From NCBI RefSeq assembly GCF_017876815.1, contig NZ_JAGIOS010000001.1:1620001-1652000 (forward strand): DNA of 32,000 nt, written 5' to 3'. The notes under the pieces are model-generated. The model was not told the origin of the DNA. It searched no databases and was given only the letters and a program-made list of their open reading frames with translations. The position numbers and the translations under genes were made by a program. The DNA comes from Sinorhizobium meliloti. GTDB taxonomy: Bacteria > Pseudomonadota > Alphaproteobacteria > Rhizobiales > Rhizobiaceae. Positions 3,286 to 27,200 of the stretch are shown here, in pieces; the stretch's first letter is position 1, and every line of letters begins with the position of its first letter.

Positions 3286-4422
3286 ATGATGCTTCGCTCG
3301 ATGTTCGCCGAGAACTACCGGTCGCTGCGCTCGATCCGTATGGATTTGGCCGGCGTCAATCTGTTCATCGGAGAGAACGGCGTCGGGAAGTCCAACCTCT
3401 ATCGTGCCCTGCAGCTGGTTCAGGCTGCCGTGCGAGGCCATCTCGCCCGCGAGATCGCCGAAGAAGGCGGCATGGTGTCCGCTATCTGGAGCGGCCCGCA
3501 ACGCGTCGGCAAGCCGGCGCGTATTCGCCTGGACGCCGAACTGATCGACGAGGAGCGAGCGATCACCTTCCGCTACCGGATCGAGGCGGGGTTCCGCCCG
3601 CCAAAAGCGGCGGCGGGTTTCGCTCATGAGCCGCAGGTCAAGGAGGAGGAGCTCACGATCGAGACGGGCCGGCGCCCGGTTCCGGTGATGAAGCGTATCG
3701 GCCCCGGTATCTTCGTGCGCGGAGAGGGTGGCCGGATGGTGGACTATCCGGAACAGGCGATGACATCGGAAACGGCCATTTCGTTGCTCGGCGATGCCGG
3801 CCACTATCCGGAGATCGGGGACTTCCGCCGGGCGGTCGACCAATGGCGGTTCTTTCACGGCTTTCGCACCGACCGCGAATCGCCGCTGCGAATGCCCTGT
3901 CTCGCGATCACCGCGCCGCTGCTGGACGAGACCGGCTTCAACATGGCCGCCGTCTTCGCGACGCTTCGGCACACGAGACAGGATACGGTCGATCTCGATC
4001 GCGCGATTGCCGACGCCTTTGCAGGCGCCCGTCTCGCGGTTCCTGAACCTGGTCAATACGCCGATTTCTCCTTGGTCTTTCCTGACTTTCCGCACCGGTT
4101 GTTTTCGCCCCGCGAGCTTTCGGACGGGCAGATGCGCTTCCTGGCGCTGGCGGCTGCGCTTTTATCCTATCGCCGTCCCAGGTTCATCGCGCTGAACGAA
4201 CCGGAGACCAGTCTTCATCCCGATATGCTGCCGGCCCTGGCCGCCATGGTCGCCAGCGCCGCGCGCGAAAGCCAGATATGGATCGTCACCCATTCCGAAA
4301 GACTGGCGGCACTCGTTCAGGAGCGGTGCGGCGTCCGGCCCCGCCGGGTGATCCGCAGGGACGGGGCCACCTGGATCGAGGGTATGCGGCTTACCGGCAT
4401 GATCGACGAGGAAGACGAATAA
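3286..4422 (+). CDS. ABC/SMC-like AAA ATPase (AAA_21-type predicted ATPase)
   Basis: The N-terminus MLRSMFAENYRSLRSIRMDL is typical of RecF/ABC-like ATPases. Motifs seen are Walker A GENGVGKS, signature-like LSDGQ, Walker B/D-loop RFIALNEPETSLHP and H-loop IVTHSERL. About 240 aa are inserted between Walker A and the signature. Confidence 0.75.
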   Translation: MMLRSMFAENYRSLRSIRMDLAGVNLFIGENGVGKSNLYRALQLVQAAVRGHLAREIAEEGGMVSAIWSGPQRVGKPARIRLDAELIDEERAITFRYRIEAGFRPPKAAAGFAHEPQVKEEELTIETGRRPVPVMKRIGPGIFVRGEGGRMVDYPEQAMTSETAISLLGDAGHYPEIGDFRRAVDQWRFFHGFRTDRESPLRMPCLAITAPLLDETGFNMAAVFATLRHTRQDTVDLDRAIADAFAGARLAVPEPGQYADFSLVFPDFPHRLFSPRELSDGQMRFLALAAALLSYRRPRFIALNEPETSLHPDMLPALAAMVASAARESQIWIVTHSERLAALVQERCGVRPRRVIRRDGATWIEGMRLTGMIDEEDE

Positions 4423-4453
4423 GGACGCCCCTTCATCCGCCGTGCGGACGCCG

Positions 4454-5623
4454 TCAGAAAAGCTTGCGCAAATTCACATAGCCGCCAAACTGATCATAAT
4501 CGTAGATGCCGACATTACTGCTGCGCTTCTCATAGAAGACGCTCACCTCCGGGCGGATACCGTTCCACTCCAGCCGTTCGGCCGACAAGGCTATCTCGGG
4601 CCTTACCGTTGCATCTCTACGCCGGTTGCCCCAGAAGGGGCTGTATTCGGCGAAACGCGTTTGCTTCCAGCTCACTTGCGGCGTCAGCTGTATGTCGGCG
4701 ACACTGAAATTGATGCCGAAATCGACCTTTGTCGAAACATAGCTGTAGTAATCGTTCCGACTGTTGAGCGTTTCTGCCGACAACTTGCCGAACACGGTCG
4801 CGTTTGGCTGGAATGTCCAGTCCCCGAAAACATAGGCTCGGCGGAATGGTCCGGAGACGTCGGCCTCTCGCGAAAACATGTATCCGGCCTGGCCGCCAAG
4901 CCCGGCACCCGCCGTGTCGGAAAGCCGGAAGCGTTTCCACGATTCGATGGTGGGCAGCACATAGGAGTTCGGCCGGGCGATGCCGGTATCGAGGTTCGCT
5001 TGGACGAAGAGGCCGGGCAGGATCGTGATCTGCTTGCCGACTGCAAGCTGAAGATGGCCCGCTCGCAGGTCGTCGTCCTCGAAGAGCCTCGCCGACAGTT
5101 GGAGCTTTGTCAGGTAACCGTTCTGCCAGAGTTTCTCGGCGGAAAACCACGGTTCTATCCCGTAGGAAACTTCTTTCCGGGCCGGCGGTTGATACTCCAG
5201 CGGAATGCCGTTGAAATAGACCGTGCCGCCCTCGCCAACCTTGGACGGGTTGCTGTCCGTAATGATTCTGGCGCCATAACGGATGCGCAGCACGCGCAGT
5301 TCAGCCTGCTCGATAAAGGGAAGAATGTTGCGCCGAACCTTTTGTGGCGTGGCTTTTTCCAGATAGACCTGCCGAAACAATGCAAGCGCACCGGCATTGT
5401 CGCCGGTGCGCAGGAGTAACCGCGCCAGTTCGAGTTTGATACGGGGTGCCGCCGTCTCAGTTACAAGGAGGCGGAGGCTTCGTATCGCGCTGTCCGGCCG
5501 ACCGGCGCCGGCTTCGGCCAGGGCTTGCTTGAACCTGGCGTCGATCTCGGCAGGCGTGGCGGCGACCGAGTTCGTAGCCACGCCTGCGATGAGCATCCCG
5601 GCCATGAACCCGATGCGAATCAT
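4454..5623 (-). CDS. Outer-membrane beta-barrel with N-terminal TPR-like segment. Candidate Slam (surface lipoprotein assembly modifier, DUF560) protein.
   Basis: The signal peptide is MIRIGFMAGMLIAGVATNSVA|A. A helical TPR-like stretch, IKLELARLLLRTGDNAGALALFRQVY, follows. After that come about 300 aa of alternating beta-strand pattern ending in the OMP beta-signal YVNLRKLF. The start ATG overlaps the upstream lipoprotein stop (ATGA at 5620-5623). Confidence 0.6.
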   Translation of the reverse strand: MIRIGFMAGMLIAGVATNSVAATPAEIDARFKQALAEAGAGRPDSAIRSLRLLVTETAAPRIKLELARLLLRTGDNAGALALFRQVYLEKATPQKVRRNILPFIEQAELRVLRIRYGARIITDSNPSKVGEGGTVYFNGIPLEYQPPARKEVSYGIEPWFSAEKLWQNGYLTKLQLSARLFEDDDLRAGHLQLAVGKQITILPGLFVQANLDTGIARPNSYVLPTIESWKRFRLSDTAGAGLGGQAGYMFSREADVSGPFRRAYVFGDWTFQPNATVFGKLSAETLNSRNDYYSYVSTKVDFGINFSVADIQLTPQVSWKQTRFAEYSPFWGNRRRDATVRPEIALSAERLEWNGIRPEVSVFYEKRSSNVGIYDYDQFGGYVNLRKLF

Positions 5624-6510
5624 GGCTGCTTGACGGTGCCGTAGCCGCCAACCATCGTCGCGTTGTTTCCCTTCAAGTCGAAGGTGCCGCCGACTTCTTG
5701 AGCGCCCGATCCGTAGAAGCGGCCGTCTACCGTGCCGGACATCGACTGGTCGGCAGTAGCGATGTTGCCGGAGAGACCGCCGGCTGCGATATCGAGCTTG
5801 CCGGACATGTCGAGGTTGGCAGCCGTGCCGCCCGCTTCGAGCCTGGTGTTGTTGGTCCTGAACCTGGCCGTATTGTCGCCGAAGTCGACATCCAATGCGG
5901 CGTCCGCGCTCATGACGTCATAGCCGACCGTGTCGACGTAGATGCCGCCCGCCGTTCCTTTGAACGTCGCGGTTGAACTGGTGGGAACATCCGCCTTGGC
6001 CGTTTCGCTGCCGAGGCTGAAGGCCCCCAAACGGCCGCCCTTTTCGTCGACCCAGCCGCCATAGGTCTGATAGGCGAACCCGTTCTTTTCCGGATCGGCG
6101 AAACCGATGCTGCCGCTGTCGTCCTCGGCGCTGGCGATCACAAGCTTTCCGTTTTGGGAATAGGCGAGCTCGGAATTGGTGTGGTCCCAGGTTTTCGTCG
6201 TGGTCGCCGTCTTCAAGGTAGTCGAGCTGATGTCGCCACTCGTCGCGTCCCTCGCCAACTCCGCTTCCAAAGGAGCGGAAGCGCCAAACGCGGAGACGGC
6301 ACCGCTTTTCGTAACGGTGGCTTCCCGGCCGTTTCCTTTTAAAGTCGTGGTCTTGCCCGTTTCGAGCGGAAACTTCGTGAAGTTGGTCGTCCCGCCTGGA
6401 ACGCCTGAACCGCCTGGACCGCCTGGACCGCCGGAGCCTCCTCCGCAGCCGGCCAGTGCCAGTGACGCTGCCAACAAAACCGAAAATCTGACTGTAACCG
6501 AAGAAGTCAT
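5620..6510 (-). CDS. Lipoprotein with Gly/Pro tether and C-terminal TbpB/fHbp-like 8-strand barrel signature. Candidate Slam-dependent surface lipoprotein.
   Basis: The preferred start is the ATG at 6510 (MTSSVTVRFSVLLAASLALAGC), preceded by gagggg 7 nt upstream. The track ORF extends to 6618. It has the lipobox LALAG|C and the tether CGGGSGGPGGPGGSGVPGG. The C-terminal pattern is TATFKGTAGG...DVDFGDNTARF...GKLDIAAGGLSGNI...GRFYGSGAQEVGGTFDLKGNNATMVGGYGTVKQP. Confidence 0.65.
   Translation of the reverse strand: MTSSVTVRFSVLLAASLALAGCGGGSGGPGGPGGSGVPGGTTNFTKFPLETGKTTTLKGNGREATVTKSGAVSAFGASAPLEAELARDATSGDISSTTLKTATTTKTWDHTNSELAYSQNGKLVIASAEDDSGSIGFADPEKNGFAYQTYGGWVDEKGGRLGAFSLGSETAKADVPTSSTATFKGTAGGIYVDTVGYDVMSADAALDVDFGDNTARFRTNNTRLEAGGTAANLDMSGKLDIAAGGLSGNIATADQSMSGTVDGRFYGSGAQEVGGTFDLKGNNATMVGGYGTVKQP
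6392..6436. repeat. Imperfect 9-bp tandem repeat (ccgcctgga x5) inside the lipoprotein gene
   Basis: The five units are ccgcctgga, acgcctgaa, ccgcctgga, ccgcctgga and ccgccggag. On the minus strand they encode the (Gly-Gly-Pro/Ser)n tether directly after the lipobox cysteine. Confidence 0.8.
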
Positions 6511-6644
6511 TCCAATGCCCCTCAATGTGTTGCCTATTCCTGTAGTATTACCTCCAATAAAGGAGGCCAAACTGCAATAGAGAATGCCCTTTCCGATCGA
6601 CGCATGCCGAAATTGCACTTTGGTGTTTCTACCGGGCTAATTTG

Positions 6645-6660
6645 TTCTCTCTGGAGAGAA
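6645..6660. promoter_or_regulatory. 16-bp palindrome ttctctc-tg-gagagaa in the AT-richer divergent control region. Candidate operator.
   Basis: Two perfect 7-bp arms are separated by 2 nt. The site lies between the lipoprotein start (6510, minus) and the probable start of the LuxR/hydrolase gene (6771, plus). No binding factor is demonstrated. Confidence 0.3.
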
Positions 6661-6770
6661 ACTTAGCTATACGGACCTTACGGGCGGGTCCTGTTGAGGC
6701 AATCACCCAAATGGGTGAGTGCTTGATTTTGTTGCCGGGCCTATGGGTTGGCAGACACGGGAGGGGCGAA

Positions 6771-8300
6771 GTGGACGACGCGGCATCGGAAGAACTGACG
6801 GAAGCACTGGCGCATGCATTGGGTACGCTGCAGGATGGGCTGACCGGTTCCTTCCTGAAGAGCGTGGGGTCCGGGCGGAGCGATCCGGGCGATCCGGCCG
6901 GGGCATGGCAGATCATCGATTGCCAGCTTACCGGCCGCGTTCCGCATCCGCTGAAACAGGCAGACCGGCACAGCGCGCTGTGGCGGGACCTCACCCATGC
7001 GCTGAACCGGCAAGGGGAACTGCGCGGCGGGATTCTTCTCGACGATGGCCTGGCGCTGTTCGTGCCCGGCGGCAGCGAACGTCCTGCCCGCCTCATCGTC
7101 TTGAGGGATTCAACCCTTTTCGATGCCGCGGGCGAGGTTACCGGTGGCCTGACGCTCTACCCTTCGGAGCAACGCCTCCTGAAGCAACTTGTCTGCGGTT
7201 TCAACCTGGCCGCGGCCGCGACTCTCGATGGTGTCAGCCATGAGACGAAGCGCTCGCAGTTCAAGTCTCTCGCCCGCAAGCTTGGCGGCGGTTCGCAGGC
7301 GGAGATCGCCGGCAGGGCGCTCTCGCGCGTCTTCCTCGAGATTGCTTCGTTTTCCGGTACGGGCGTATCGCAGGACGACTACTTCGACGATCTGCTGCGG
7401 GAGTTCGCGCCCGGAGCGCGGACCTTGCGCCTGCGCAGCCGGGCCGGTCGGAGCCATCGCTTCGTGGAGATAGGGCCGATCGGTGGGCGGCCCGTCGTGA
7501 TGCTGCATCCCATGGTTCTGCCTGACTTCAGGAACGGGGATCTCGGGGCGCTCGATACCCTCGCCCTGCGCCTGATCGTCCCATTGCGCCATGGCGCGAT
7601 GTCGCAGGAAACGGTTGCACTGGGAGTCTCCGCTCATCTCGACCACGCCTGTGAGGGGATTGATCTCGCTCGCAGGCATTTCTGCGGCGAGCAGGCAGAT
7701 ATCATGGCCTGCATCAGCGGAACGGCCTATGGATTGGAATATGCCCGCCGTCATCCCGATCGCGTTGCTTCCTTGGCTTTCGTGGGCGCCACCGTGAAGC
7801 CGACGACATCGCGTACCACGGCGGGGCGGCTGCGGTCCGGCCTGTTCACTCTCTCGATGAACCAATGGCACGTCTACTCACGGCTCATGGATTTCTATGT
7901 GCGGCGCATCCGTCGGCCGGAAACGCTGAAACAGCTGCTCTTAAGCGTTTATCGACCCAATCTGGCCGATGTGGCCATCATCGGTGCCGAATATGGAGCG
8001 CCCTTCGGCGGCGAACGGCTGCGCAAGTTCTTCACCTCGTCGGTGCAATCGATCAAGCACGACTTCTATCATCAAGCCTTACCCGACTGGAGCGGTTTCC
8101 CGGCACCGGGCTGCCGTACGATCTTTCTTCACGGTGCGCAGGATTTCATACACTCCGCCACTGACGTGCGCGCCCTGGCGCAATCGCTGGGCGGCGTTCC
8201 GGTCGTAACGCTGCCCAGTGCCGGGCAGTTGCTCTACCATGACCACTTCGAGGCAGTGATTGGCCTCTATCGCGGATTTCTCGAACATCGGCTGGAATGA
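6771..8300 (+). CDS. Fusion protein: unknown N-terminal domain, LuxR/GerE-type HTH, and C-terminal alpha/beta-hydrolase fold
   Basis: The HTH (about nt 7155-7325) reads LYPSEQRLLKQLVCGFNLAAAATLDGVSHETKRSQFKSLARKLGGGSQAEIAGRA and aligns with the LuxR C-terminal effector pattern. The hydrolase fold (about 7450-8300) includes GGRPVVMLHP, the nucleophile elbow ACISGTAYG, LHGAQDF, and a His in AGQLLYHDHFEAV. The start is uncertain. The track gives TTG 6642 and there is an ATG at 6711. I prefer GTG 6771 because gggagggg lies 4 nt upstream and third-position GC is low before it and high after it. Confidence 0.6.
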   Translation: MDDAASEELTEALAHALGTLQDGLTGSFLKSVGSGRSDPGDPAGAWQIIDCQLTGRVPHPLKQADRHSALWRDLTHALNRQGELRGGILLDDGLALFVPGGSERPARLIVLRDSTLFDAAGEVTGGLTLYPSEQRLLKQLVCGFNLAAAATLDGVSHETKRSQFKSLARKLGGGSQAEIAGRALSRVFLEIASFSGTGVSQDDYFDDLLREFAPGARTLRLRSRAGRSHRFVEIGPIGGRPVVMLHPMVLPDFRNGDLGALDTLALRLIVPLRHGAMSQETVALGVSAHLDHACEGIDLARRHFCGEQADIMACISGTAYGLEYARRHPDRVASLAFVGATVKPTTSRTTAGRLRSGLFTLSMNQWHVYSRLMDFYVRRIRRPETLKQLLLSVYRPNLADVAIIGAEYGAPFGGERLRKFFTSSVQSIKHDFYHQALPDWSGFPAPGCRTIFLHGAQDFIHSATDVRALAQSLGGVPVVTLPSAGQLLYHDHFEAVIGLYRGFLEHRLE

Positions 8301-8334
8301 GGGCCTTCACGGTCAGCAAACGGGCGAAACGAAA

Positions 8335-8358
8335 GGGCCCCGCATCGCTGCGAGGCCC
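8335..8358 (-). terminator. Stem-loop downstream of tal. Probable intrinsic terminator, possibly bidirectional.
   Basis: gggccccgca (8335-8344) pairs with tgcgaggccc (8349-8358) with one mismatch and a 4-nt loop. On the minus strand it is followed by tttcgtttc. It lies 23 nt past the tal stop and between convergent genes. Confidence 0.5.
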
Positions 8359-8380
8359 CTTCCACTCCATGCCATTAAAG

Positions 8381-9034
8381 TCAGGCGATCTTCTGGCCGG
8401 TCTTGGCCCAATCGGCGAGGAACATTTCGAGGCCCTTGTCGGTCAGCGGGTGCTTGACCAAGGCCTTCAGCGTTGCCGGCGGCGCGGTGACGACGTCGGC
8501 GCCGATGAGGGCGGCTTCCTTCACGTGGTTGACCGTGCGCACCGAGGCGGCAAGGATCTCGGTCTCGTAGCCGTAATTGTCGAAGATCTGGCGGATTTCG
8601 CGGATCAGGTCCATGCCGTCGACGGCGATATCGTCGAGGCGGCCGATGAAGGGCGAGACGAAGGTCGCGCCGGCCTTGGCGGCGAGCAGCGCCTGGTTTG
8701 CCGAGAAGCACAGCGTCACGTTGGTCTGGTGGCCGTCCGAGGTCAGCGCCTTGCAAGCCTTGAGGCCGTCGAGCGTCAGCGGCAGCTTGATGCAGATGTT
8801 GTCGGCGATCTTCGAAAGTGCGGCCGCTTCCTTCATCATCGCGCTGTATTCGGTCGCGGTCACTTCGGCCGACACCGGTCCTTCGACGATCGAGCAGATT
8901 TCCTTGGTAACCTCGACGATGTCGCGGCCCGCCTTCAGGATCAATGACGGATTGGTGGTGACGCCGTCGAGCAGGCCGAGATCGTTCAGTTCCCGGATGT
9001 CCTTCACATCGGCGGTATCAACGAAAAATTTCAT
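8381..9034 (-). CDS. tal: Transaldolase, short type (Fsa/TalC-like, 217 aa)
   Basis: The sequence [36 protein letters not shown]... includes ICIKLPLT with the Schiff-base Lys context. The start ATG at 9034 is preceded by aaggaag. The track ORF (to 9136) is over-extended at the N-terminus. Confidence 0.9.
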
Positions 9035-9209
9035 CGGAGTCTTCCTTTGGCACTCAGCCGTTTCGGGCGCATCTCCGCAGCAGGAAATTCCATGGCGGAT
9101 ATCGCGCGCGTTGAAACTCGGTTGGAACCGTGACAAACCCTGCTTTCTGCAAGGCAGCGGTTCGCTGCGAGTTTTCTTTAACTGAAAGCGGTGGCAAGGT
9201 CACGGCAAA

Positions 9210-11414
9210 ATGACTCTTGATTCAACCGATTTATTCGGCCCCGTACTCGACCGCCGGGTGGTGCCCGTCCTGGTGCCCATGCCGGCGCCGAGGGCCTATT
9301 CCTACGCGGTGCCCGACGGCATGGCGGTCGAGCCGGGATCGATCGTGCAGGTGCCGCTCGGCCCCCGTTTCGTCGTCGGCGTCGTCTGGGACGGCGAAGA
9401 CGACGGCGGCGTCGATCCGAAGAAGCTGAAGCAGATCGAGAAGGTCTTCGACTGCCCGCCGCTCGGCCCGGACATGCGCGCCTTTCTCGATTGGGTGGCC
9501 GCCTATACGCTGACGCCGCCTGGCCTCGTCGTCCGGATGGCGCTCCGGGCGCCGACCGCCTTCGATCCGGAGCCGATGGTGGAAGCCCTGCGCCTGACCG
9601 AGATGCGGCCGGAACGGATGACTGCGGCGCGCGAGCGCGTCCTCGCCACGGCGAGCGACGGGCTTTCCTGGACCCGCTCGGGGCTTGCCCATGCCGCCGG
9701 GGTCTCGTCCAGCGTCATCGACGGCCTGACGTCGCAGGGCGTGTTCGAAACCGTCTTCATGCCGCCGCCGCCCGTCGTCGCCGCGCCGGATCCAGCTTTC
9801 GCCGCGCCGCGCCTCGAAGGCCCCCAGAAGCAGGCGGCTGCGGATCTTCTGGCGGCTGTCGAGGAGCGGAAATTCTCGGTATCGCTGATCGACGGCATCA
9901 CCGGTTCCGGCAAGACGGAGGTCTATTTCGAGGCGATAGCGGCGACGTTGCGCGCCGGCAAGCAGGTCCTGATCCTGCTGCCGGAGATCGCGCTGACCGC
10001 AAGCTTCCTCGAACGCTTCCAGGACCGCTTCGGCGCGAAGCCCGCGGAGTGGCACTCCGATCTCGCGCCGCGCATGCGGGAAAAGGTCTGGCGGCAGGTG
10101 ACGACGGGCCAGGTGCGCGTCGTCGCCGGTGCCCGCTCGGCGCTGTTCCTGCCTTTCGAGGATCTCGGCCTCATCATCGTCGACGAGGAGCACGACCCCG
10201 CCTACAAGCAGGAGGACCGTGTCTTCTATAATGCGCGCGATATGGCCGTGGTGCGCGGGCGGATCGGCAACTTTCCGGTCGTGCTCGTCTCCGCCACGCC
10301 TTCGGTGGAGAGCCGGGTGAACGGCGAGGTGGGGCGTTACCGGCCGATCCATCTGCCCACCCGCTTCGGCGATGCGGCGCTCCCCGATCTCGGCATAGTC
10401 GACATGCGCCGCCATCCGCCGGAACGCGGCGGCTTTCTCTCGCCGGTGCTCGTGAACCAGATCGGCAAGACGATCGGCCGGCGCGAGCAGGCGCTCCTGT
10501 TCCTGAACCGGCGCGGCTACGCACCGCTGACGCTCTGCCGCGTATGCGGCCATCGCTTCCAATGCCCGGATTGCTCGAGCTGGCTGGTCGAGCACCGCTT
10601 CCGCGGCCAGATCCAGTGCCATCACTGCGGCTACTCTGAACGGACTCCGGAAGCCTGCCCGGAATGCGGCACGCTCGATCATCTCGTTGCCTGCGGCCCC
10701 GGGGTCGAGCGCATCGCCGAAGAGGTCGAGCGGCACTTTCCCGACGCGCGCACCATCGTGCTCTCCTCCGATCTGATGGGGGTCAAGCGGCTGCGGCTGG
10801 AGCTCGAGGCAATCGCCCGCGGGGAGGCGGACATCGTCATCGGCACGCAACTCGTCGCCAAGGGGCACAACTTCCCGAACATGACCCTGGTCGGCATCGT
10901 CGATGCGGATCTGGGTCTTGCCAATGGCGACCCGCGCGCTGCGGAACGGACGTTCCAGCTCCTTTCCCAGGTGACGGGACGTGCCGGACGGACGGGACTC
11001 AAAAGCCTCGGCCTTCTGCAGACCTATCAGCCGCAGCATCCGGTCATGCAGGCGATCGTGTCCGGCGATTCCGACGCTTTCTACGAACGCGAGATCCATG
11101 AGCGGGAAAGGGCGGTGCTGCCTCCTTTCGGCCGGCTCGCCTCGGTCATCGTTTCGGCCGATACGCGCGGCGATGCCGAGGGCCACGCCCGCGGACTGCG
11201 CAATGCCGCGCCGCGCGTCGACGGCATCGCGATCCTCGGACCGGCGGAAGCGCCGCTCGCGCTTATCCGCGGCCGGCATCGCTTCCGGCTTCTCGTCCAC
11301 GGGCGGCGCAACAGCGACATGCAGTCCTTCGTCCGGGCTATGATCGCCGCCGGCCCCAAGGAGCGCGGATCGGTCAGCGTCCAGCTCGACATCGATCCGC
11401 AGAGTTTTTTGTGA
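9210..11414 (+). CDS. priA: Primosomal protein N' (replication restart helicase PriA)
   Basis: It has Walker A GITGSGKTEVY and the DEEH box LIIVDEEHD. The Cys-rich zinc-binding insert reads CRVCGHRFQCPDCSSWLVEHRFRGQIQCHHCGYSERTPEACPECG. The helicase C-terminal motifs read IGTQLVAKGHNFP...QVTGRAGR. Confidence 0.95.
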   Translation: MTLDSTDLFGPVLDRRVVPVLVPMPAPRAYSYAVPDGMAVEPGSIVQVPLGPRFVVGVVWDGEDDGGVDPKKLKQIEKVFDCPPLGPDMRAFLDWVAAYTLTPPGLVVRMALRAPTAFDPEPMVEALRLTEMRPERMTAARERVLATASDGLSWTRSGLAHAAGVSSSVIDGLTSQGVFETVFMPPPPVVAAPDPAFAAPRLEGPQKQAAADLLAAVEERKFSVSLIDGITGSGKTEVYFEAIAATLRAGKQVLILLPEIALTASFLERFQDRFGAKPAEWHSDLAPRMREKVWRQVTTGQVRVVAGARSALFLPFEDLGLIIVDEEHDPAYKQEDRVFYNARDMAVVRGRIGNFPVVLVSATPSVESRVNGEVGRYRPIHLPTRFGDAALPDLGIVDMRRHPPERGGFLSPVLVNQIGKTIGRREQALLFLNRRGYAPLTLCRVCGHRFQCPDCSSWLVEHRFRGQIQCHHCGYSERTPEACPECGTLDHLVACGPGVERIAEEVERHFPDARTIVLSSDLMGVKRLRLELEAIARGEADIVIGTQLVAKGHNFPNMTLVGIVDADLGLANGDPRAAERTFQLLSQVTGRAGRTGLKSLGLLQTYQPQHPVMQAIVSGDSDAFYEREIHERERAVLPPFGRLASVIVSADTRGDAEGHARGLRNAAPRVDGIAILGPAEAPLALIRGRHRFRLLVHGRRNSDMQSFVRAMIAAGPKERGSVSVQLDIDPQSFL

Positions 11415-19265: not shown

Positions 19266-20180
19266 TCAATGGTCCGGGATTGCGCCCCGGCCGGCAGGCT
19301 GCCGCGCTGCCGCCTGCGGTTCTGCCCGAGCATCGGGCCGCGCCCAGGCGCTCGGGCCCCGGATAAAGGAAACGCTCGCTCCGTCGCCCGGGATCAGCCA
19401 TTTTTCGCGGTCGAAATAGAGCTCGGCGATGCTCTTCGGCCGCGCGCGTGCGGCCTGATTGGCAAGGAAGTTGTAGCGGGGCGTGTCCCCCATCTCCCGT
19501 TTGAACTGGATACGACTGCCGAAGCGCTTGAGATCGAATTCCTGCAGGGCCTGGATCTTGAGAGTGATGCTTGCGCCCCCCGCCCAGCGGACCTCGCTCA
19601 AGAAGACGGATGCCGCCTTCGCAGCAGCGCTGGTGACGACCGGCGTGTCCCCGCTGTGCTCGATATTGAGTTTAACGCGGAAGGAGGTGATCTCCTCCTC
19701 GCCACGGCCCTTGACCAGGATGAAGATGGAAGAGCTCGGTTCCTGGCCGGGGCGGGCAAAGGGAACGAGCGATGAGCATTCCCAGCGGCCGCTCTCGGCG
19801 GATTTCCATTCGAGGTCGCGGAAGCCGGCCTCCCTCAGTCCCTCGCAAAGTGCCCTCGGGTCGCTGCGGATCTGACGGATGAATTGCTGTTCCGGCGTTG
19901 CAAGATCCGCGAAGATGTGGGCGGGCAGGAGTGCCTTTGGCGGTTCGGGCTTTTTACGTGGACCGCGGGCAGCCTCCGGCGGCCGCTCCGTTTGCGGCGG
20001 CGTCATCGCGAACCCCAGACCGGCAAGCAGCTGCTTCAGGTGGCGCTGCTCGTTGGCCAGGAGCACGGTCGCGGCGATCGCCGTGAAGATGAGCCCCACG
20101 GCGACGAAGAAGAAAGCGATGCCGGAACGGCCTTGCTGTTTCCTCTCCATCTTGCGTCGTTGCTCCGCCACGGAGATCAC
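19266..20180 (-). CDS. Hypothetical membrane-anchored protein with one N-terminal TM, a Pro/Lys-rich linker and a roughly 200-aa C-terminal domain
   Basis: The TM segment is GIAFFFVAVGLIFTAIAATVLLA and the linker is PPQTERPPEAARGPRKKPEPPKALLP. I recognise no catalytic motif. The GTG start at 20180 and the ATG at 20150 are both possible. Confidence 0.5.
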   Translation of the reverse strand: MISVAEQRRKMERKQQGRSGIAFFFVAVGLIFTAIAATVLLANEQRHLKQLLAGLGFAMTPPQTERPPEAARGPRKKPEPPKALLPAHIFADLATPEQQFIRQIRSDPRALCEGLREAGFRDLEWKSAESGRWECSSLVPFARPGQEPSSSIFILVKGRGEEEITSFRVKLNIEHSGDTPVVTSAAAKAASVFLSEVRWAGGASITLKIQALQEFDLKRFGSRIQFKREMGDTPRYNFLANQAARARPKSIAELYFDREKWLIPGDGASVSFIRGPSAWARPDARAEPQAAARQPAGRGAIPDH

Positions 20181-20264
20181 GGCATTACACCGGACCGCTC
20201 CAAACCTTCAGTCGTGGCGCACCATAAGGGATCATGGCGCCGGCGTCCAAACTCCTGAGCGAGG

Positions 20265-20370
20265 CCCCTCCCCAACCCCTCCCCACAAGGGGGAGGAGGG
20301 GCTTAAACTGTGGGTGCCGCAAGGGAGCCCCTCCCCCTTGTGGCCCTTGTGGGGAGGGGTTGGGGAGGGG
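20265..20370. repeat. Compound palindromic REP-like element with a perfect 27-bp inverted repeat
   Basis: cccctccccaacccctccccacaaggg (20265-20291) is the exact reverse complement of cccttgtggggaggggttggggagggg (20344-20370). The 52-nt spacer holds a second, imperfect inverted pair (gggggaggaggggc / gcccctccccc). The element ends 8 nt from the sitD stop codon. Confidence 0.85.
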
Positions 20371-20378
20371 GCTTACGT

Positions 20379-21233
20379 CTATTCCACGCTTGTCCGCTGC
20401 GCCTCGGCACGCGCAATCTTCCAGGTGGAATAGGCGAAGGCGAGCAGGAACATCGCCGTCATCAGAAGGACGATGGTGGGTGCCGGTGCGCTGTCGATGA
20501 AGAAGGAGAGATAGACGCCGCAGAAGGAGGCGGCGACGGCGACCATCACCGCGACCGCCAGCATGGCGCCGAATGTCCGCGTGACGAGATAGGCGATCGC
20601 GCCGGGGGCAATGAGCATGGCGATGGCCAGGATCAGCCCGACCGCCTTGAGCGCACCGACGATCGTCAGCGACAGGATCGCGAGCAGTCCGTAATGCAGC
20701 CAGCCGACCCTCAGACCGATGGCGCGCGCCTGAGCCGGATCGAAGGCGTGGAGCAGCAGGTCGCGCCATTTCAAGCCGAGAATGCCGGCGGCGAAAAGCG
20801 CGATGAGGCCCGTCTCCAGAATGTCGCCCCAGCCGATGCCTAGCATGTCGCCGAAAAGGATGTGATCGAGATGCACGTCGCTCTGGATCTTGGTGTAGAG
20901 CACAAGGCCAAGGCCGAACATGCCGGAAAAGACGACGCCCATCACCGTGTCCTGCTTGATGCGGCTGTTTTCCTTCAGGTAGCCGGTCAGAAGCGCGCAG
21001 CACATGCCGGCCGTAAAGGCGCCGACGGCGAGCGGCAGGCCGACGATGTAGGAAACGACGACGCCGGGGAAGACCGCATGCGAGATCGCGTCGCCCATCA
21101 GCGACCAGCCCTTGAGGACCAGGAAGCAGGAGAGCATCGCCGTCGGAATCGCAACCAGGACCGAGATCAGCAGCGCATTGCGCATGAACTCGAACTCGAA
21201 GACGGCAAGGAGCATGTCGAGCGAAGGCATCAT
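20379..21233 (-). CDS. sitD: Manganese/iron ABC transporter permease
   Basis: [59 protein letters not shown] is typical of the ABC-3 (TroCD/MntCD) permease family. The start overlaps the sitC stop (ATGA). The track ORF 20379..22034 is an out-of-frame read-through into sitC. Confidence 0.85.
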   Translation of the reverse strand: MMPSLDMLLAVFEFEFMRNALLISVLVAIPTAMLSCFLVLKGWSLMGDAISHAVFPGVVVSYIVGLPLAVGAFTAGMCCALLTGYLKENSRIKQDTVMGVVFSGMFGLGLVLYTKIQSDVHLDHILFGDMLGIGWGDILETGLIALFAAGILGLKWRDLLLHAFDPAQARAIGLRVGWLHYGLLAILSLTIVGALKAVGLILAIAMLIAPGAIAYLVTRTFGAMLAVAVMVAVAASFCGVYLSFFIDSAPAPTIVLLMTAMFLLAFAYSTWKIARAEAQRTSVE

Positions 21234-22087
21234 GCGGTCTCCAGAGCCTCGGATGCGCGGCGGCGGGCGGCGAGCAGCCCGTGTTTCGGGGCAAGTACGA
21301 AGGCGAACAGGAAGATCGCGGTCTGCAGCACGATGATGATGCCGCCGGTTGCGCCGTCGAGGAAGTAGCTCGCATAGGCGCCGACGAAGCTCGTCAGGGC
21401 CCCGATCGCGATGCTGATCACGATCAGCCGCGGAAAACGGTCGGTCAGGAGATAGGCGGTCGCGCCGGGGGTGACGACCATGGCGACGACCAGGAAGGCG
21501 CCGACCGTCTGCAGCGCCGCCACCGTCGAGGCCGAGAGCAGCGTGAAGAAGAGCACCTTCAGAAAGGTGGTGTTGATGCCGATGGAGCGGGCGTGGCTTT
21601 CGTCGAAGAAGGTCACCATCAGGTCCTTCCACTTGGCGGACAGGATCATGAGTGAGACGACGCCGATGATGGCGAGCTGCAACGTGTCGGCCGGGGTGAT
21701 GGCGAGGATATTGCCGAGCACGATCGTCTGAATGTTCACCGAGGTCGGCGACAGAGAGACCATGAACAGGCCGAGGCCGAAGAAGGAGGTGAAGATCAAA
21801 CCGATGATCGTGTCCTCCTTCAGCCGCGTGCGCTGGTTGAGGAACAGCATGGCACCGGCGGCAAGGGCACCGGAAAAGAAGGCGCCGAGCGAGAAGGGAA
21901 GCCCGAGCATATAGGCCCCGGCGACGCCCGGCACGATCGAGTGGGAGAGCGCATCGCCGATCAGCGACCAGCCCTTCAGCATGAGATAGGCCGAAAGAAA
22001 CGCGCAGACCGCGCCCACCAGCGCGCTTACCCACATGGCATTCACCATGTAGCTATAGGCGAACGGCTCGATGAGCGTGGCGATCAT
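21230..22087 (-). CDS. sitC: Manganese/iron ABC transporter permease
   Basis: [59 protein letters not shown] places it in the ABC-3 permease family, paralogous to the downstream gene. There is a 4-nt overlap with sitB. Confidence 0.85.
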
Positions 22088-23019
22088 TCGGAGTCCGCCT
22101 CGGATTCCGATTCCGGTTTGGCCGGCTGCGCAACCATGCGGTCGCGGGCGCCATACATGACGAGCGGACGCTCGTCGTCGCTGATGACCGAGAGCTGGCG
22201 TGGATCGGCATCGTCATGGAGGTTCTCTCCGCCGAGCACGAAGTGACGCAGGACGCCCCCGAAGGCGAGCTCCAGGTTTTCGCGGGTGAAGGTGGTTTCC
22301 GTGGGACCGTAGGCGAGCACCGTATTTTTCAGAAGGATGGTGCGGTCGCAGAATTCCGGCACGCTTCCGAGATTATGGGTGGAGACGAGCATCACACGGC
22401 CTTCTTCGCGAAGCGCGACGAGCAGGCGGATGATCGCGTCCTCCGTTTTCACGTCGACCCCGGTGAAAGGCTCGTCGAGCAGGATGACGCGGCCGTTCTG
22501 GGCAAGCGCCCGGGCCAGGAAGACCCGCTTCTTCTGACCGCCGGAAAGCTCGCCGATCTGGCGCTTGCGGAACTCGCTCATGCCGACCCGCGCCAGCGCC
22601 GTCTCGACCGCCTCGTGATCGGCCTTTTTCGGGATGCGCAGCATGTTCATATGGCCGTAACGGCCCATCATCACCACGTCTTCGACGAGGACGGGAAAAT
22701 TCCAGTCGACCTCTTCGGCCTGCGGGACATAGGCGACGAGGTTCTGTCTCAGTGCCTGCGGCACGGTGAGGCCCAGGATCGAAATGTCGCCCTTGGCCAG
22801 CCGGACGAAGCCCATGATAGCTTTGAACAGCGTCGACTTGCCGCTGCCGTTGACGCCGACAAGGGCCGCGATGGTGCCCGTCGGGATTTCGAAGGAGGCG
22901 TCGCGCAGCGCCCGGTGGCCGTTGCGGTAGGTCACCGTAGCGCCGCTGACGCGAATGCCGCCATCCTCCTCTTGCGGAGCTGCTCCCGGATAGGCGCGGG
23001 CCTTTTCCTGAAGGTTCAT
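22084..23019 (-). CDS. sitB: Manganese/iron ABC transporter ATP-binding protein
   Basis: The real start is the ATG at 23019 ([12 protein letters not shown]...). Motifs seen are Walker [10 protein letters not shown], signature LSGGQKKR, Walker B ILLDEP and H-loop VSTHNL. It carries a C-terminal extension of about 60 aa. The track ORF is over-extended into sitA. Confidence 0.9.
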
Positions 23020-23921
23020 TGCGACAAGCCTTTCGCGATCGTTTCCGATGTAACGCGCAGCAGATCGATATAGGTCGGAACGGGGCCGTCGGCCTCGCTC
23101 AAGGAGTCGACATAGAGCACGCCCCCGTATTTTGCACCCGTCTCCCGCGCGACCTGCTCGGCGGGGTCGGGCGAAATGGTGCTTTCGGAAAAGACTACGG
23201 GTATCCGATTGGCCCGAACCACGTCGATCACCTTGCGCACCTGCTGCGGCGTGCCTTGCTGGTCGGCATTGATCGGCCAAAGATAAAGCTCCTTCATGCC
23301 GAAATCGCGGGCGAGATAGCTGAATGCGCCCTCGCTCGAAACGAGCCATCGCCTTTCCGCCGGTATCCTTTCGAGCTCGGTGCGGATGGGTGCGACCGCC
23401 GCCTCGATCTTCTTCTTGTAGGCCTCGGCATTTGCCTTGTAGACCTCGGCATTCGGGGGATCGTGTTGCACGAAGGCGTCGCGGATATTGTCGACATAGA
23501 TCAGCGCGGCCGAAGGCGACATCCAGGCATGCGGGTTGGGTTTGCCGGTATAGGGCCCCTCGGCGATGCCCATCGGCTCGACGCCTTCGGAGACGACGAC
23601 GCCGGGAACGCCGTCGAAGTTCTGGAAGAACCTTTCGAACCAGAGCTCGAGGTTCAGCCCGTTCCACAGAATGAGGTCGGCATCATGCGCCTTGAGGATA
23701 TCGCGGGGCGTCGGCTGGTAATTGTGGATCTCGGCGCCCGGCTTGGTGATCGATTCGACCACCGCGGCATCGCCCGCGACGTTCTGCGCCATATCGGCGA
23801 TGACCGTGAAGGTGGTGACGGCCTTGAGCTTTTCCGCCGCCCGGGCCGCCGCCGGCATGAGCGATAGAGCAGCCATCGCCGCTGCTGCCGCCACGATCAT
23901 GCGCCTCGTTGGATGGATCAT
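23016..23921 (-). CDS. sitA: Manganese/iron ABC transporter periplasmic metal-binding protein (cluster A-I, TroA/MntC-like)
   Basis: The start ATG at 23921 ([28 protein letters not shown]) is preceded by aggaga. Metal-site contexts are [16 protein letters not shown] and VVFSEST...YVDSL. It overlaps sitB by ATGA. Confidence 0.9.
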
Positions 23922-23978
23922 CCGGCTCTCCTCTTTGCGAACCATAATATGGGTAGGCGAATGGTCTGCATAAGTCAA

Positions 23979-23999
23979 TGCAAATGAGAAGCATTTGCA
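23979..23999. promoter_or_regulatory. Mur/Fur-type operator (perfect palindrome TGCAAATG-N5-CATTTGCA) in the sitA-fur divergent region
   Basis: The site is tgcaaatgagaagcatttgca at 23979-23999, with 8-bp perfect arms. A partial second site, tgcataagtcaatgca, lies at 23967-23982. It sits 58 nt upstream of the sitA start and 44 nt upstream of the fur start. Rhizobial sitABCD is known to be repressed by Mur at palindromic Mur-responsive sequences. Confidence 0.75.
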
Positions 24000-24042
24000 A
24001 CTAGCTATTTCCAAAAGGTGTCCCCTTGGCTAGTGTCGCGGG

Positions 24043-24471
24043 ATGAGCCAGAGCAAGAATCGGATCGAGGAACTGGAAGGAATCCTGCGGGAAGGCGGCG
24101 TCCGCGTGACGCGCCAACGCGCCGCGATTCTGAAGATCCTGGCCGAGGCCGAAGACCACCCGGATGCCAGCGAACTTCACCGGCGCGCGAAGGAAATCGA
24201 CGCGACCGTGTCGCTCTCGACCGTCTATCGGACTCTTTCCGCACTGGAGCAGCAAGGGGTGGTGCAGCGGCATGCCTTCGAGAACGCGACTGCCCGCTTC
24301 GAGACGGCGGATGCGCCCCACCACGATCACCTGATCGATATCGAAACGGGTGCGGTGATCGAGTTCCGCTCCGACAAGATCGAGCAGCTGCAGGCGGAGA
24401 TCGCTGCCGAACTCGGCTATGACCTGGTGCGCCACCGGCTGGAGCTCTATTGCCGGAAGCGCAAGGACTGA
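24043..24471 (+). CDS. fur: Fur-family metalloregulator (rhizobial Mur, manganese uptake regulator)
   Basis: The winged helix reads RVTRQRAAILKILAEAEDHPDASELHRRAKEIDATVSLSTVYRTLSALEQQGVV, and the metal-site motif is HHDHLIDIETG. No C-terminal CxxC pairs are present, as in rhizobial Mur. It is adjacent and divergent to sitABCD. Confidence 0.9.
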   Translation: MSQSKNRIEELEGILREGGVRVTRQRAAILKILAEAEDHPDASELHRRAKEIDATVSLSTVYRTLSALEQQGVVQRHAFENATARFETADAPHHDHLIDIETGAVIEFRSDKIEQLQAEIAAELGYDLVRHRLELYCRKRKD

Positions 24472-24477
24472 GCGAAA

Positions 24478-25383
24478 TTACCCTCCGACAGTGGCAACCC
24501 TGGGCCGCGTAGGCATGGTCATGGCGGCGACGCCGGCGATGACGCAGCCGAGGCCGAGCCATGCAGTGGTCGAAAGCGTTTCCCCGAGAAATACCACTCC
24601 GATCGCAACGCCGATCGGCACGCGCACATAGGCCTGTGCCGTCGCGCCGACGGAACCGAGCGTGTGGATCAGGCGGAAATAGATGACGAAGGCGAGCGCG
24701 GTCGAGAAGACGGACAGGCAGAGGAGCGCAATCAGCGATTCCGGCGAGGGATCGAGCGTCCAGGGTCGATCGACGACGAGGCTCGCCGGGATGAGCAGGG
24801 CCGCACCCGCGAGAAGCGATCCGCAAGCGGGCATCATCGGATCGAGCCCCCTGAAGCCCTTCCCGAATATCGCCGCGCCGGCATAGCAGACCGTCGCAAG
24901 AACAACCGCAAGCTGCGGGATGAGCTGATCTCCGATGCCGCGGAAGGCCTCAAGACCGATGATCAGCCCGATTCCGGCGATGCCTGCAAGGACGCCCAGG
25001 AACTTGCGGGCGGTAACTGGCTCGTGCCGGGTGATCAGCGCCGTCAGGAGAAAGGCGAAGATCGGCGTCGTGGAGTTGAGGATGGCCGCGACGCCGGCAT
25101 CGGTCGTGCGCTCCGACCAGGCGATCAGGGTGAAGGGAACGACGCTGTTCAAGCAGGCCTGGAACAGGAACCGCCGCCACATCGCCCCGTCGCGCGGCAA
25201 TGTCAGGCCGCGCCACGCGATCAGCGCCAGAAGAACCGTGCCGGCAATCAGCGTTCGCGCGGCGATCAGCGTAACCGGGGGAATGGTTTCGACGCCGATC
25301 TTGATGAAGGTGTAGGAGGCGCCCCAGAGCGTTGCGAGGGCGACAAGCAGAAGCAGTTCGAGAGCGAGACGTGGCCTGTCCAT
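24478..25383 (-). CDS. EamA/DMT family transporter
   Basis: This 301-aa protein has about 10 hydrophobic segments and two EamA-like halves (LWGASYTFIKIGVETIPP... and ...GATAQAYVRVPIGVAIGVVFLGETLS). Confidence 0.85.
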   Translation of the reverse strand: MDRPRLALELLLLVALATLWGASYTFIKIGVETIPPVTLIAARTLIAGTVLLALIAWRGLTLPRDGAMWRRFLFQACLNSVVPFTLIAWSERTTDAGVAAILNSTTPIFAFLLTALITRHEPVTARKFLGVLAGIAGIGLIIGLEAFRGIGDQLIPQLAVVLATVCYAGAAIFGKGFRGLDPMMPACGSLLAGAALLIPASLVVDRPWTLDPSPESLIALLCLSVFSTALAFVIYFRLIHTLGSVGATAQAYVRVPIGVAIGVVFLGETLSTTAWLGLGCVIAGVAAMTMPTRPRVATVGG

Positions 25384-25469
25384 GAATGTGGTCCTTGTGA
25401 ATCGTTGTTCATCGGACCATTCCTAGTGTCCGGAGCCACGGCGATGCTTCGGTGCCGATCGAAGTGTGG

Positions 25470-25507
25470 CGCATTACCCCGCGGGCTTTTGCCCGCGGGG
25501 TAATGCG
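25470..25507. other. Perfect 17-bp stem-loop between the nucleobase permease and the EamA gene
   Basis: cgcattaccccgcgggc (25470-25486), loop tttt, gcccgcggggtaatgcg (25491-25507). It begins 3 nt after the permease stop (25510-25512). No U-tract follows on the minus strand, so it is not a canonical intrinsic terminator. Confidence 0.8.
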
Positions 25508-25509
25508 GA

Positions 25510-26994: not shown

Positions 26995-27200
26995 GGTTCC
27001 TCCTCCATCGCCGCGACCGTCCGTTCCCGTCCTCCAACGGGGGAGGGGAACTTTTCGTGCGGCGGGAGCATGCCGCAAGGGTGCAGGAAGTGCAAACACT
27101 TTCGGGTTTTTCGAGGGTAATCGGGCGCATCGGGGGCGATCCGGACGAGCATGCGCCCGGATCGCGTTTTCGCCGGTTCAGCGGAACGGATTGCCGTGTG

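Follow-up and report, generated by a model that had tools for sequence, protein, structure and literature searches.

What would a bacterium without an animal host do with a secretion system that is known from animal-associated bacteria? The question is raised by two adjacent minus-strand genes in a 32,000-nucleotide stretch of the Sinorhizobium meliloti chromosome (NZ_JAGIOS010000001.1, positions 1,620,001 to 1,652,000; the whole stretch is referred to below as the window). The genes encode a 296-aa lipoprotein (SLP; 5620-6510) and, after it, a 389-aa outer-membrane protein (Slam; 4454-5623), an order that is evident from the table of open reading frames (ORFs) and from the sequence itself. 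All experimentally verified Slam, or type 11 secretion, systems come from animal-associated bacteria. We conclude with good confidence that the pair is a two-gene type 11 secretion operon, in which the SLP lipoprotein contains a barrel of the TbpB type and Slam is its predicted exporter. The domain architectures and operon structure rest on sequence, hidden Markov models (HMMs) and structural models; the transport steps considered further on are transferred from the systems of Neisseria, Moraxella, Pasteurella and Xenorhabdus, including the reconstituted Neisseria system (PMC9090332).

The two genes are joined by an ATGA overlap at 5620-5623: in the minus-strand text (...AAGCAGCCATGATTCGC...), the SLP stop codon TGA (5622-5620) and the Slam start codon ATG (5623-5621) share these positions. 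The SLP ORF spans 5620-6618, with an ATG start at 6510 on the minus strand, and a Shine-Dalgarno-like run, GAGGGG, ends 8 nt 5' of this ATG; the resulting 296-aa product is likewise the one chosen by NCBI gene calls in other strains, including other S. meliloti assemblies. From the ATG, the protein reads MTSSVTVRFSVLLAASLALAG up to Cys22 and continues with GGGSGGPGGPGGSGVPGG (across the cleavage point, MTSSVTVRFSVLLAASLALAG is followed by CGGGSGGPGGPGGSGVPGG). Residues 1-22 (6445-6510) thus constitute a signal peptide with the lipobox LALAG followed by C22, which was judged by eye and with a regular expression; among 22 homologues, C22 never varies, and L-A-G-C is conserved too. The signal peptide leads into a Gly/Pro-rich disordered tether (residues 23-44; 6379-6444) with the conserved motif GGGSGGPGGPG.

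The folded part of SLP consists of an N-terminal all-beta handle (residues 45-170; 6001-6378), presumed to be the ligand-binding part, and a C-terminal 8-strand TbpB_B_D barrel (residues 171-296; 5623-6000), presumed to be the Slam-targeting module. The barrel was matched by PF01298 (TbpB_B_D) over residues 175-293 with 33.3 bits (cut-off, 26). In the AlphaFold2 model, which, like that of Slam, was built with family alignments, residues 1-44 are disordered (pLDDT <50) and pLDDT exceeds 90 over residues 50-296, with nine strands in the handle (54-167; pLDDT ~90) and eight in the barrel (180-294; pLDDT >90). Foldseek searches against the PDB with this model retrieved TbpB, LbpB, the TbpB C-lobe, hemophilin/HphA, fHbp, NHBA and HpuA, and a profile of the SLP family matched LbpB (E = 1e-9) and TbpB C-lobes in the PDB as well as, across both domains, Haemophilus parainfluenzae hemophilin (8glo, E = 8e-6). 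Within the family, the barrel is more conserved than the handle, which is the least conserved folded part (0.72 vs 0.57), and the last two barrel strands are the most conserved stretch of all. This pattern agrees with the C-terminal specificity motif that has been proposed for Slam substrates (PMC9090332), and it is what would be expected if the barrel served in targeting and the more variable handle in ligand binding.

The downstream product carries the architecture of a Slam protein. A type I signal peptide (MIRIGFMAGMLIAGVATNSVA, followed by Ala) precedes a periplasmic helical domain with two TPR-like helix pairs and a connecting helix (residues 22-111; 5291-5560) and a 14-strand beta-barrel (residues 112-389; 4457-5290), which contains a hairpin insert at about residues 124-152 and ends in ...YVNLRKLF with the terminal Phe. 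The NLRKLF ending is conserved, as is the motif YFNGxPLEYQPP. PF04575 (SlipAM/DUF560) matched the protein with 38.9 bits (cut-off, 22; E = 9.7e-10) and is precomputed on nearly all of 41 relatives. The helical domain produced TPR matches in Pfam at residues 31-93 that lie under the cut-off (TPR_16, E = 6e-6) and matches to consensus TPR proteins in the PDB profile search; PF24575, the TPR_Slam model, matches some of the relatives and gave no match to the window Slam. The AlphaFold2 model (mean pLDDT 88) has helices at residues 24-39, 43-56, 60-72, 76-88 and 94-111, followed by 14 long strands between residues 113 and 387 and a small conserved hairpin at about 133-144. Foldseek against the PDB returned BcsC, PgaA and PelBC, which combine TPRs with a barrel, together with the 14-strand OmpG and FadL; the best match of the barrel is OmpG (TM score, 0.65-0.67), and the TPR-plus-barrel layout resembles that of BcsC and PgaA. 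No solved Slam structure was found in the PDB by the Foldseek and profile searches.

Much of this had been anticipated by a sequence-only reading of the window, which described the ATGA overlap, the signal peptide, lipobox and Gly/Pro tether of SLP, its C-terminal block as a barrel of the TbpB/LbpB/fHbp/HpuA type, and the signal peptide, TPR-like segment and beta region ending in YVNLRKLF of the second protein. All of these features are present at the coordinates given there, the quoted C-terminal block being the most conserved part of the SLP family, and the interpretation in that reading is supported. The profile matches and folds that it expected were obtained too: the Pfam scores of both proteins exceed the curated cut-offs, for SlipAM/DUF560 and TbpB_B_D, and the models comprise a TPR region with a 14-strand barrel and a handle with an 8-strand barrel, respectively.

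Further evidence comes from the distribution of the pair, for which we relied on one scan of species-representative genomes and on contig look-ups. The Slam clade was found in eight genera: Sinorhizobium, Ollibium/Mesorhizobium composti, Pseudaminobacter, Borborobacter, Chelativorans (two species), Aminobacter, Neomegalonema and Shinella. Directly upstream of the Slam gene, at a spacing of -4 to +20 nt, six Hyphomicrobiales genera have a gene for a TbpB_B_D lipoprotein. The order SLP-then-Slam is kept in Sinorhizobium, Ollibium/Mesorhizobium composti, Pseudaminobacter, Borborobacter and two Chelativorans species, and the lipobox and the GGGSGGPGGPG tether occur in all SLP copies of the paired loci. 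The genes around the pair differ completely between genera, being those of the dcw cluster in Chelativorans and miscellaneous ones in O. composti. The conserved module is the SLP and Slam genes alone.

The clade itself is narrow. An exhaustive search of 1.84 billion representatives with Slam yielded only 7 proteins at E <= 1e-30, 3 of them full-length clusters at 45-50% identity, after which identity falls sharply to <=31% (297 proteins in total at E <= 1e-3), so that the clade forms a small group of its own in the DUF560 superfamily. SLP-Slam pairs at a greater distance were found on plasmids of Roseobacteraceae (Alloyangia and Salipiger). Within Sinorhizobium, S. meliloti and S. medicae have the pair at one and the same site of the chromosome. 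In the assembly collection, 915 indexed blocks contain a Slam protein identical to that of the window, and 90 of these blocks have contigs >1 Mb. The pair is thus a long-standing chromosomal feature of the genus rather than a sporadic island, and on this point the sequence-only reading, which called it an accessory feature, needs correction.

The identification is not new, because both genes are annotated automatically in databases and the Slam protein appears in a published list. RefSeq/PGAP names SLP "transferrin-binding protein-like solute binding protein" and Slam "surface lipoprotein assembly modifier" (e.g., in strain Ak57, CP090106.1). The supplementary list of Hooda et al. 2017 (PMC5449769, Supplementary DataSheet2), for which all proteobacterial classes were searched, has one Slam each for S. 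meliloti Rm1021 and S. medicae, along with an entry ending in "J41 1" and the entry "Meganema perideroedes 1", and the curated cluster sheet of the same study contains no Sinorhizobium. Rhizobiales DUF560 proteins fall in the uncharacterised sequence similarity network clusters 6 and 8 of Grossman et al. 2021 (PMC8406197), and a 2025 survey of cargo analysed clusters 1 and 3 only (PMC12282271); by these published surveys (PMC8406197, PMC12282271), the soil and water clusters have no characterised member. In the searchable literature, we found neither a paper that mentions DUF560 or Slam together with Sinorhizobium nor an experimental study of a Slam pair in rhizobia, and the earlier statement that cargo and ligand are unstudied in rhizobia appears to be correct within that literature. 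The Rm1021 locus tags of SLP and Slam are probably SMc02493 and SMc02492; in the same literature, no mention of SMc02492, SMc02493 or SMc02494 was found, and of the tags looked for only SMc02491 appears. The secretion system is thus of a known kind and the locus had been catalogued before, the pair itself being an uncharacterised example.

Several observations weigh against the assignment as a functional Slam operon. The SlipAM HMM aligned to residues 272-389 of Slam only, beyond the small clade no DUF560 relative exceeds 31% identity, and the protein is some 100 residues shorter than Neisseria Slam1. The NCBIfam model slam_lipo (NF041636) matched SLP at E = 1e-9 with 38.9 bits, below its equivalog cut-off of 80, so that SLP is a relative of that model's family and not an equivalog. 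In Neomegalonema perideroedes, a Slam that belongs to the clade (50% identity) stands alone, with no TbpB_B_D gene near it, and most S. medicae strains have an intact Slam gene without the cargo; strict one-to-one coupling is thus not universal. No promoter or regulatory signal was identified for the pair: there is no match to the sigma-70 consensus on the minus strand, Rfam at permissive thresholds gave no riboswitch or small RNA match in 4300-6900, and no convincing Irr (ICE), RirA (IRO), Mur or Fur box was found within 290 nt upstream of SLP in two alleles, which is a weak negative. Finally, surface exposure and Slam dependence of SLP are inferred only, from the characterised systems. As regards the Neomegalonema protein, its cargo, if any, would be encoded elsewhere or be of another type; its gene (8001-9191 of its locus) lies between those for an aminotransferase and malate synthase.

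If the S. meliloti pair operates like its characterised counterparts, SLP, as a predicted Sec/SPII lipoprotein, would be exported by Sec and acylated at Cys22, and the Lol pathway would bring it to the periplasmic face of the outer membrane. There, Slam would recognise the C-terminal barrel region, and the unfolded chain may be threaded through or alongside the Slam barrel, folding outside. The lipid anchor would end in the outer leaflet, with the handle and barrel displayed on the surface on a tether of ~20 residues.

The closest parallels in architecture and the differences from them can be given for four groups of systems. Slam1 and Slam2 of Neisseria meningitidis, with TbpB, LbpB, fHbp and HpuA as cargo (Hooda 2016/2017; Huynh et al. 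2022, PMC9090332), likewise have a signal peptide, periplasmic TPRs and a DUF560 barrel, and the cargo is likewise a tethered lipoprotein with a handle, an 8-strand TbpB_B_D barrel and a GxFYGxxAxExxGxF-type ending, encoded by an adjacent gene. However, the window Slam, at 389 aa, has only two TPR-like pairs and aligns with the Pfam model over its last 118 residues only, S. meliloti has no animal host, and the window pair is known here from sequence and models. Unlike TbpB and LbpB, which have two lobes, the 296-aa SLP is single-lobed, and no gene for a cognate TonB-dependent receptor (TBDR) lies in the neighbourhood, which sets the pair apart from bipartite receptors. Hemophilin/HphA and its exporter HsmA (Acinetobacter, Haemophilus, Vibrio and Stenotrophomonas; PMC8560813, 10.1101/2023.03.29.534853) resemble the pair in having one handle and an 8-strand barrel, a similar size and an adjacent Slam gene, with profile and fold matches to SLP that cover both domains. 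In contrast to the secreted, unlipidated HphA, SLP has a lipobox and lacks the defining axial His, and its gene neighbours encode an ATPase, an alpha/beta hydrolase and a transaldolase, with no TBDR or haem-utilisation genes among them, which places it outside the HphA group.

NilB/NilC of Xenorhabdus nematophila and PmSlam/PmSLP of Pasteurella multocida (PMC9100927, PMC12080921) are also pairs of a Slam and a lipoprotein, in which the cargo does not act as an iron co-receptor and a TBDR is not obligatory; their cargo functions in host interaction, through glycan binding or binding of complement factor I (PMC9100927, PMC12080921). These pairs differ from ours in belonging to the animal-associated cluster 1 and in the lack of detectable handle similarity to the window SLP, whose relatives occur in non-host-associated bacteria. 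The Roseobacteraceae pairs (Alloyangia and Salipiger) share with the window an alphaproteobacterial host, the same gene order, a lipoprotein of ~297 aa that is 31-35% identical to SLP over the end of the handle and the barrel, and the absence of an adjacent TBDR gene. They differ in having a longer Slam (428 aa), of which only the TPR region aligned by tblastn, and in being plasmid-borne; they probably correspond to the haemophilin-like cargo of "marine cluster 3" (PMC12282271). The Alloyangia and Salipiger pairs adjoin a gene for a fusion protein of ~555 aa, TetR (TetR_N and TetR_C_29) with Abhydrolase_3 (8222-9883 and 7893-9572 of their respective loci). The fusion resembles the hydrolase neighbour of the Sinorhizobium pair in layout, a regulator-like region joined to a hydrolase, but the two are not homologous, and the likeness may be a coincidence.

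Comparison of strains indicates how the locus has evolved. Against CP141212.1, a genome labelled S. meliloti, the block 3286-8300, which comprises the ATPase, Slam, SLP and hydrolase genes, has a synonymous divergence (dS) of 0.36-0.54 with dN/dS of 0.09-0.28, whereas dS in the flanking genes is 3-5 times lower (0.08-0.14); the G+C content of the block is 0.59-0.62, compared with 0.64-0.69 in the flanks. High dS combined with low dN/dS shows that the alleles of the block are of old descent and have stayed functional under purifying selection, which acts on both genes of the pair (dN/dS of 0.15 and 0.28), and the raised divergence together with the lower G+C content indicates old allelic lineages or recombinational import. 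A finer mosaic emerges from comparison with strain Ak57 (CP090106.1), in which 37 of ~50 differences in 4400-6600 lie within a tract of ~660 bp (5276-5936) that covers the SLP barrel and the signal peptide and TPR region of Slam. The Ak57 SLP has a 3-aa indel in the tether and 13 replacements at residues 192-283, including R216, R218 and N220 at alternate positions of one strand, with a dN/dS of 0.94 for the whole gene. The Ak57 record (3.7 Mb, from PLSDB) is titled "plasmid pSymB" yet contains the chromosomal housekeeping genes priA, xerC and lpdA, so that the replicon name is apparently mislabelled.

Decay is seen as well. S. medicae USDA1037 has lost SLP residues 1 to ~230, the intergenic region and the N-terminus of the hydrolase in a deletion (7700-9200 of its locus), and its Slam gene is frameshifted after residue 33; this co-decay of cargo and exporter speaks for the assignment as a Slam operon. 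In S. meliloti, assembly GCA_054822785.1 carries a 101-bp frameshifting deletion in SLP (window 6222-6323), and the neighbouring hydrolase gene is split in another assembly. The mosaic alleles, the barrel replacements and the decay are consistent with a dispensable, surface-exposed product. A more specific proposal, that SLP is a strain-variable surface determinant with a ligand beyond transferrin, lactoferrin, haemoglobin/haem, factor H/I and glycans, strikes us as rather unlikely; under it, SLP could bind, for instance, a plant- or nodule-derived molecule or could serve as a recognition target for phages or predators.

As to what SLP binds, the evidence points towards a stand-alone surface binding protein more than towards a haem/iron co-receptor. 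Family members occur in non-symbiotic Hyphomicrobiales from compost, sludge and soil, including saline soil, and hence the target need not be legume-specific. Among the curated Slam-SLP clusters, 120/185 include a TBDR and about one third do not (PMC5449769), and fHbp, PmSLP and NilC are known examples of non-iron cargo. The most serious alternative for the function of SLP is that it scavenges haem or iron, either like hemophilin/HphA or as a co-receptor like HpuA/TbpB, and passes haem, leghaemoglobin or another iron source to a TBDR encoded elsewhere. S. meliloti is able to use haem compounds as iron sources, the SLP profile aligns with H. parainfluenzae hemophilin over the handle as well as the barrel, HphA and hemophilin are among the best single-lobe Foldseek matches (8glo and 6om5), and a TBDR accompanies the majority of the curated clusters just mentioned. 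However, no TBDR, haem oxygenase or haem-uptake gene adjoins the pair in any locus examined, whereas most Slam cargo for nutrient acquisition comes with a TBDR, and the upstream region offers no convincing box for Irr, RirA, Mur or Fur, again a weak negative. Membership in the HphA group is defined by a conserved axial His in the handle (beta5-beta6 loop, Motif-3; 10.1101/2023.03.29.534853), whereas handle residues 45-170 of SLP have no conserved His column, H110 of the window protein being common to 36% of the sequences. In addition, SLP has the lipobox of a lipidated protein, which the secreted HphA does not. We therefore regard a haem or iron role as unlikely.

It could also be argued that the locus is a relic in S. 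meliloti, no longer expressed or useful and heading for loss. Such an interpretation would account for the S. medicae strains that lack most of the cargo gene, with the Slam gene of USDA1037 frameshifted too, for the SLP deletion and the split hydrolase gene in individual S. meliloti assemblies, and for the absence of a recognisable promoter. Against this stand the two intact ORFs in the window and the identical Slam in 915 assembly blocks, the good Shine-Dalgarno-like sequence and the coupled start that are still present and dN/dS values of 0.15-0.28 at an allele dS of ~0.5, which signify long-term purifying selection. That the operon is a mere relic in S. meliloti is accordingly very unlikely.

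Least credible of all is the notion that the Slam barrel is a TPR-porin for polysaccharide export (PgaA, BcsC, PelB or EpsL-like) and SLP an ordinary, periplasm-facing outer-membrane lipoprotein: BcsC, PgaA and PelBC are among the top Foldseek matches, NCBIfam models for PgaA and EpsL match weakly (E = 0.03-0.1), and PF04575 also picks up PgaA homologues (Grossman et al., PMC8406197), but the NCBIfam scores fall hundreds of bits under the cut-offs, the modelled barrel has 14 strands and is nearest to OmpG, as opposed to the 16-strand barrels of BcsC and PgaA, the pairs of S. meliloti, S. medicae and O. composti have no genes for glycosyltransferases or polysaccharide synthases beside them (in the Chelativorans alearense locus, Glyco_transf_25 and Polysacc_deac_1 genes do lie ~0.6-2 kb downstream on the opposite strand), and a TbpB_B_D lipoprotein, by which Slam cargo is defined, is the sole partner that stays with the barrel gene from genus to genus.

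The genes around the Slam operon are arranged in the order sucAB, lpdA, xerC, acyltransferase, AAA ATPase, Slam, SLP, alpha/beta hydrolase, transaldolase, priA and atpHAGD, followed by a sitABCD-like transporter. On one side, a divergent plus-strand gene (6711/6771-8300) encodes a protein of 509-529 aa with the alpha/beta-hydrolase fold at its C-terminus and no assigned family in the N-terminal half; it is annotated only as "alpha/beta hydrolase" and, in Sinorhizobium, shares the high dS of the pair. Its central segment, SE.RLLKQL.CG..L.EAA..DGVSHETKRSQFKSLARKLG, is strongly conserved and looks by eye like a LuxR/GerE helix-turn-helix; the hhalign match is weak (E = 0.0024, probability 12%), and there is no Pfam match. 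The hydrolase was considered as a regulator or third component of the system and rejected: its Devosia and Parvibaculum homologues are not near Slam genes, and the remaining SLP-Slam loci do not contain it. On the other side, a convergent plus-strand gene (3286-4422) in the same diverged block encodes an AAA_15/AAA_21 ATPase. In PADLOC, it is matched best by the HEC-01A candidate defence proteins (E = 6e-38) and also by the ATPase regions of AriA, MADS3 and GajA-like proteins, and no partner gene is evident. As a defence-like, HEC-01A-type protein that is not conserved with the pair, it was rejected as a Slam component. SMc02491 may be this ATPase gene. A ChvI-bound fragment has been located inside SMc02491 (PMC3687685).

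Between the convergent ATPase and Slam genes, just past the Slam stop codon, a weak terminator-like hairpin (4423-4438, minus strand) was picked up by a consensus scan only and is not above the expectation from shuffled sequence. The divergent intergenic region (6511-6710) is assumed to hold the SLP promoter. A palindrome, TCACCC-ATTT-GGGTGA, at approximately 6700-6716 is conserved between two divergent alleles of S. meliloti, although little else in the region is; it overlaps the annotated start of the hydrolase gene. Since only a loose palindrome likeness (TCACCC-N4-GGGTGA or TTCCCCC-N4-GGGGGAA) recurs, in 4/7 SLP upstream regions, including those of Pseudaminobacter and Borborobacter, we did not find a shared SLP promoter motif convincing and rejected it. 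Farther away, the window holds ordinary chromosomal content, all on the minus strand: a gene for a DUF6030 protein (19266-20180), the sitABCD-like Mn/Zn ABC transporter (ZnuA, ABC_tran and ABC-3; ~21230-24014) and, within 19266-28688, genes for an EamA transporter and two tandem xanthine/uracil permeases.

What these results add to the existing annotation is a conserved module of two genes, for which a haem or iron role is unlikely, with old mosaic alleles and with loss under way in the sister species; the basic picture of a recognised kind of system stays as it was. Genetic work is easy in S. meliloti, which also has a defined host, and the SLP-Slam operon is therefore convenient for asking what Slam systems do outside animals. 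If SLP were indeed a strain-variable surface determinant, its deep lineages and mosaic barrel would be the outcome of selection at the cell surface, diversifying or frequency-dependent, as for Neisseria tbpB, and the operon would represent the first functional type 11 secretion system to be described outside animal-associated bacteria, in a genetically tractable symbiont.

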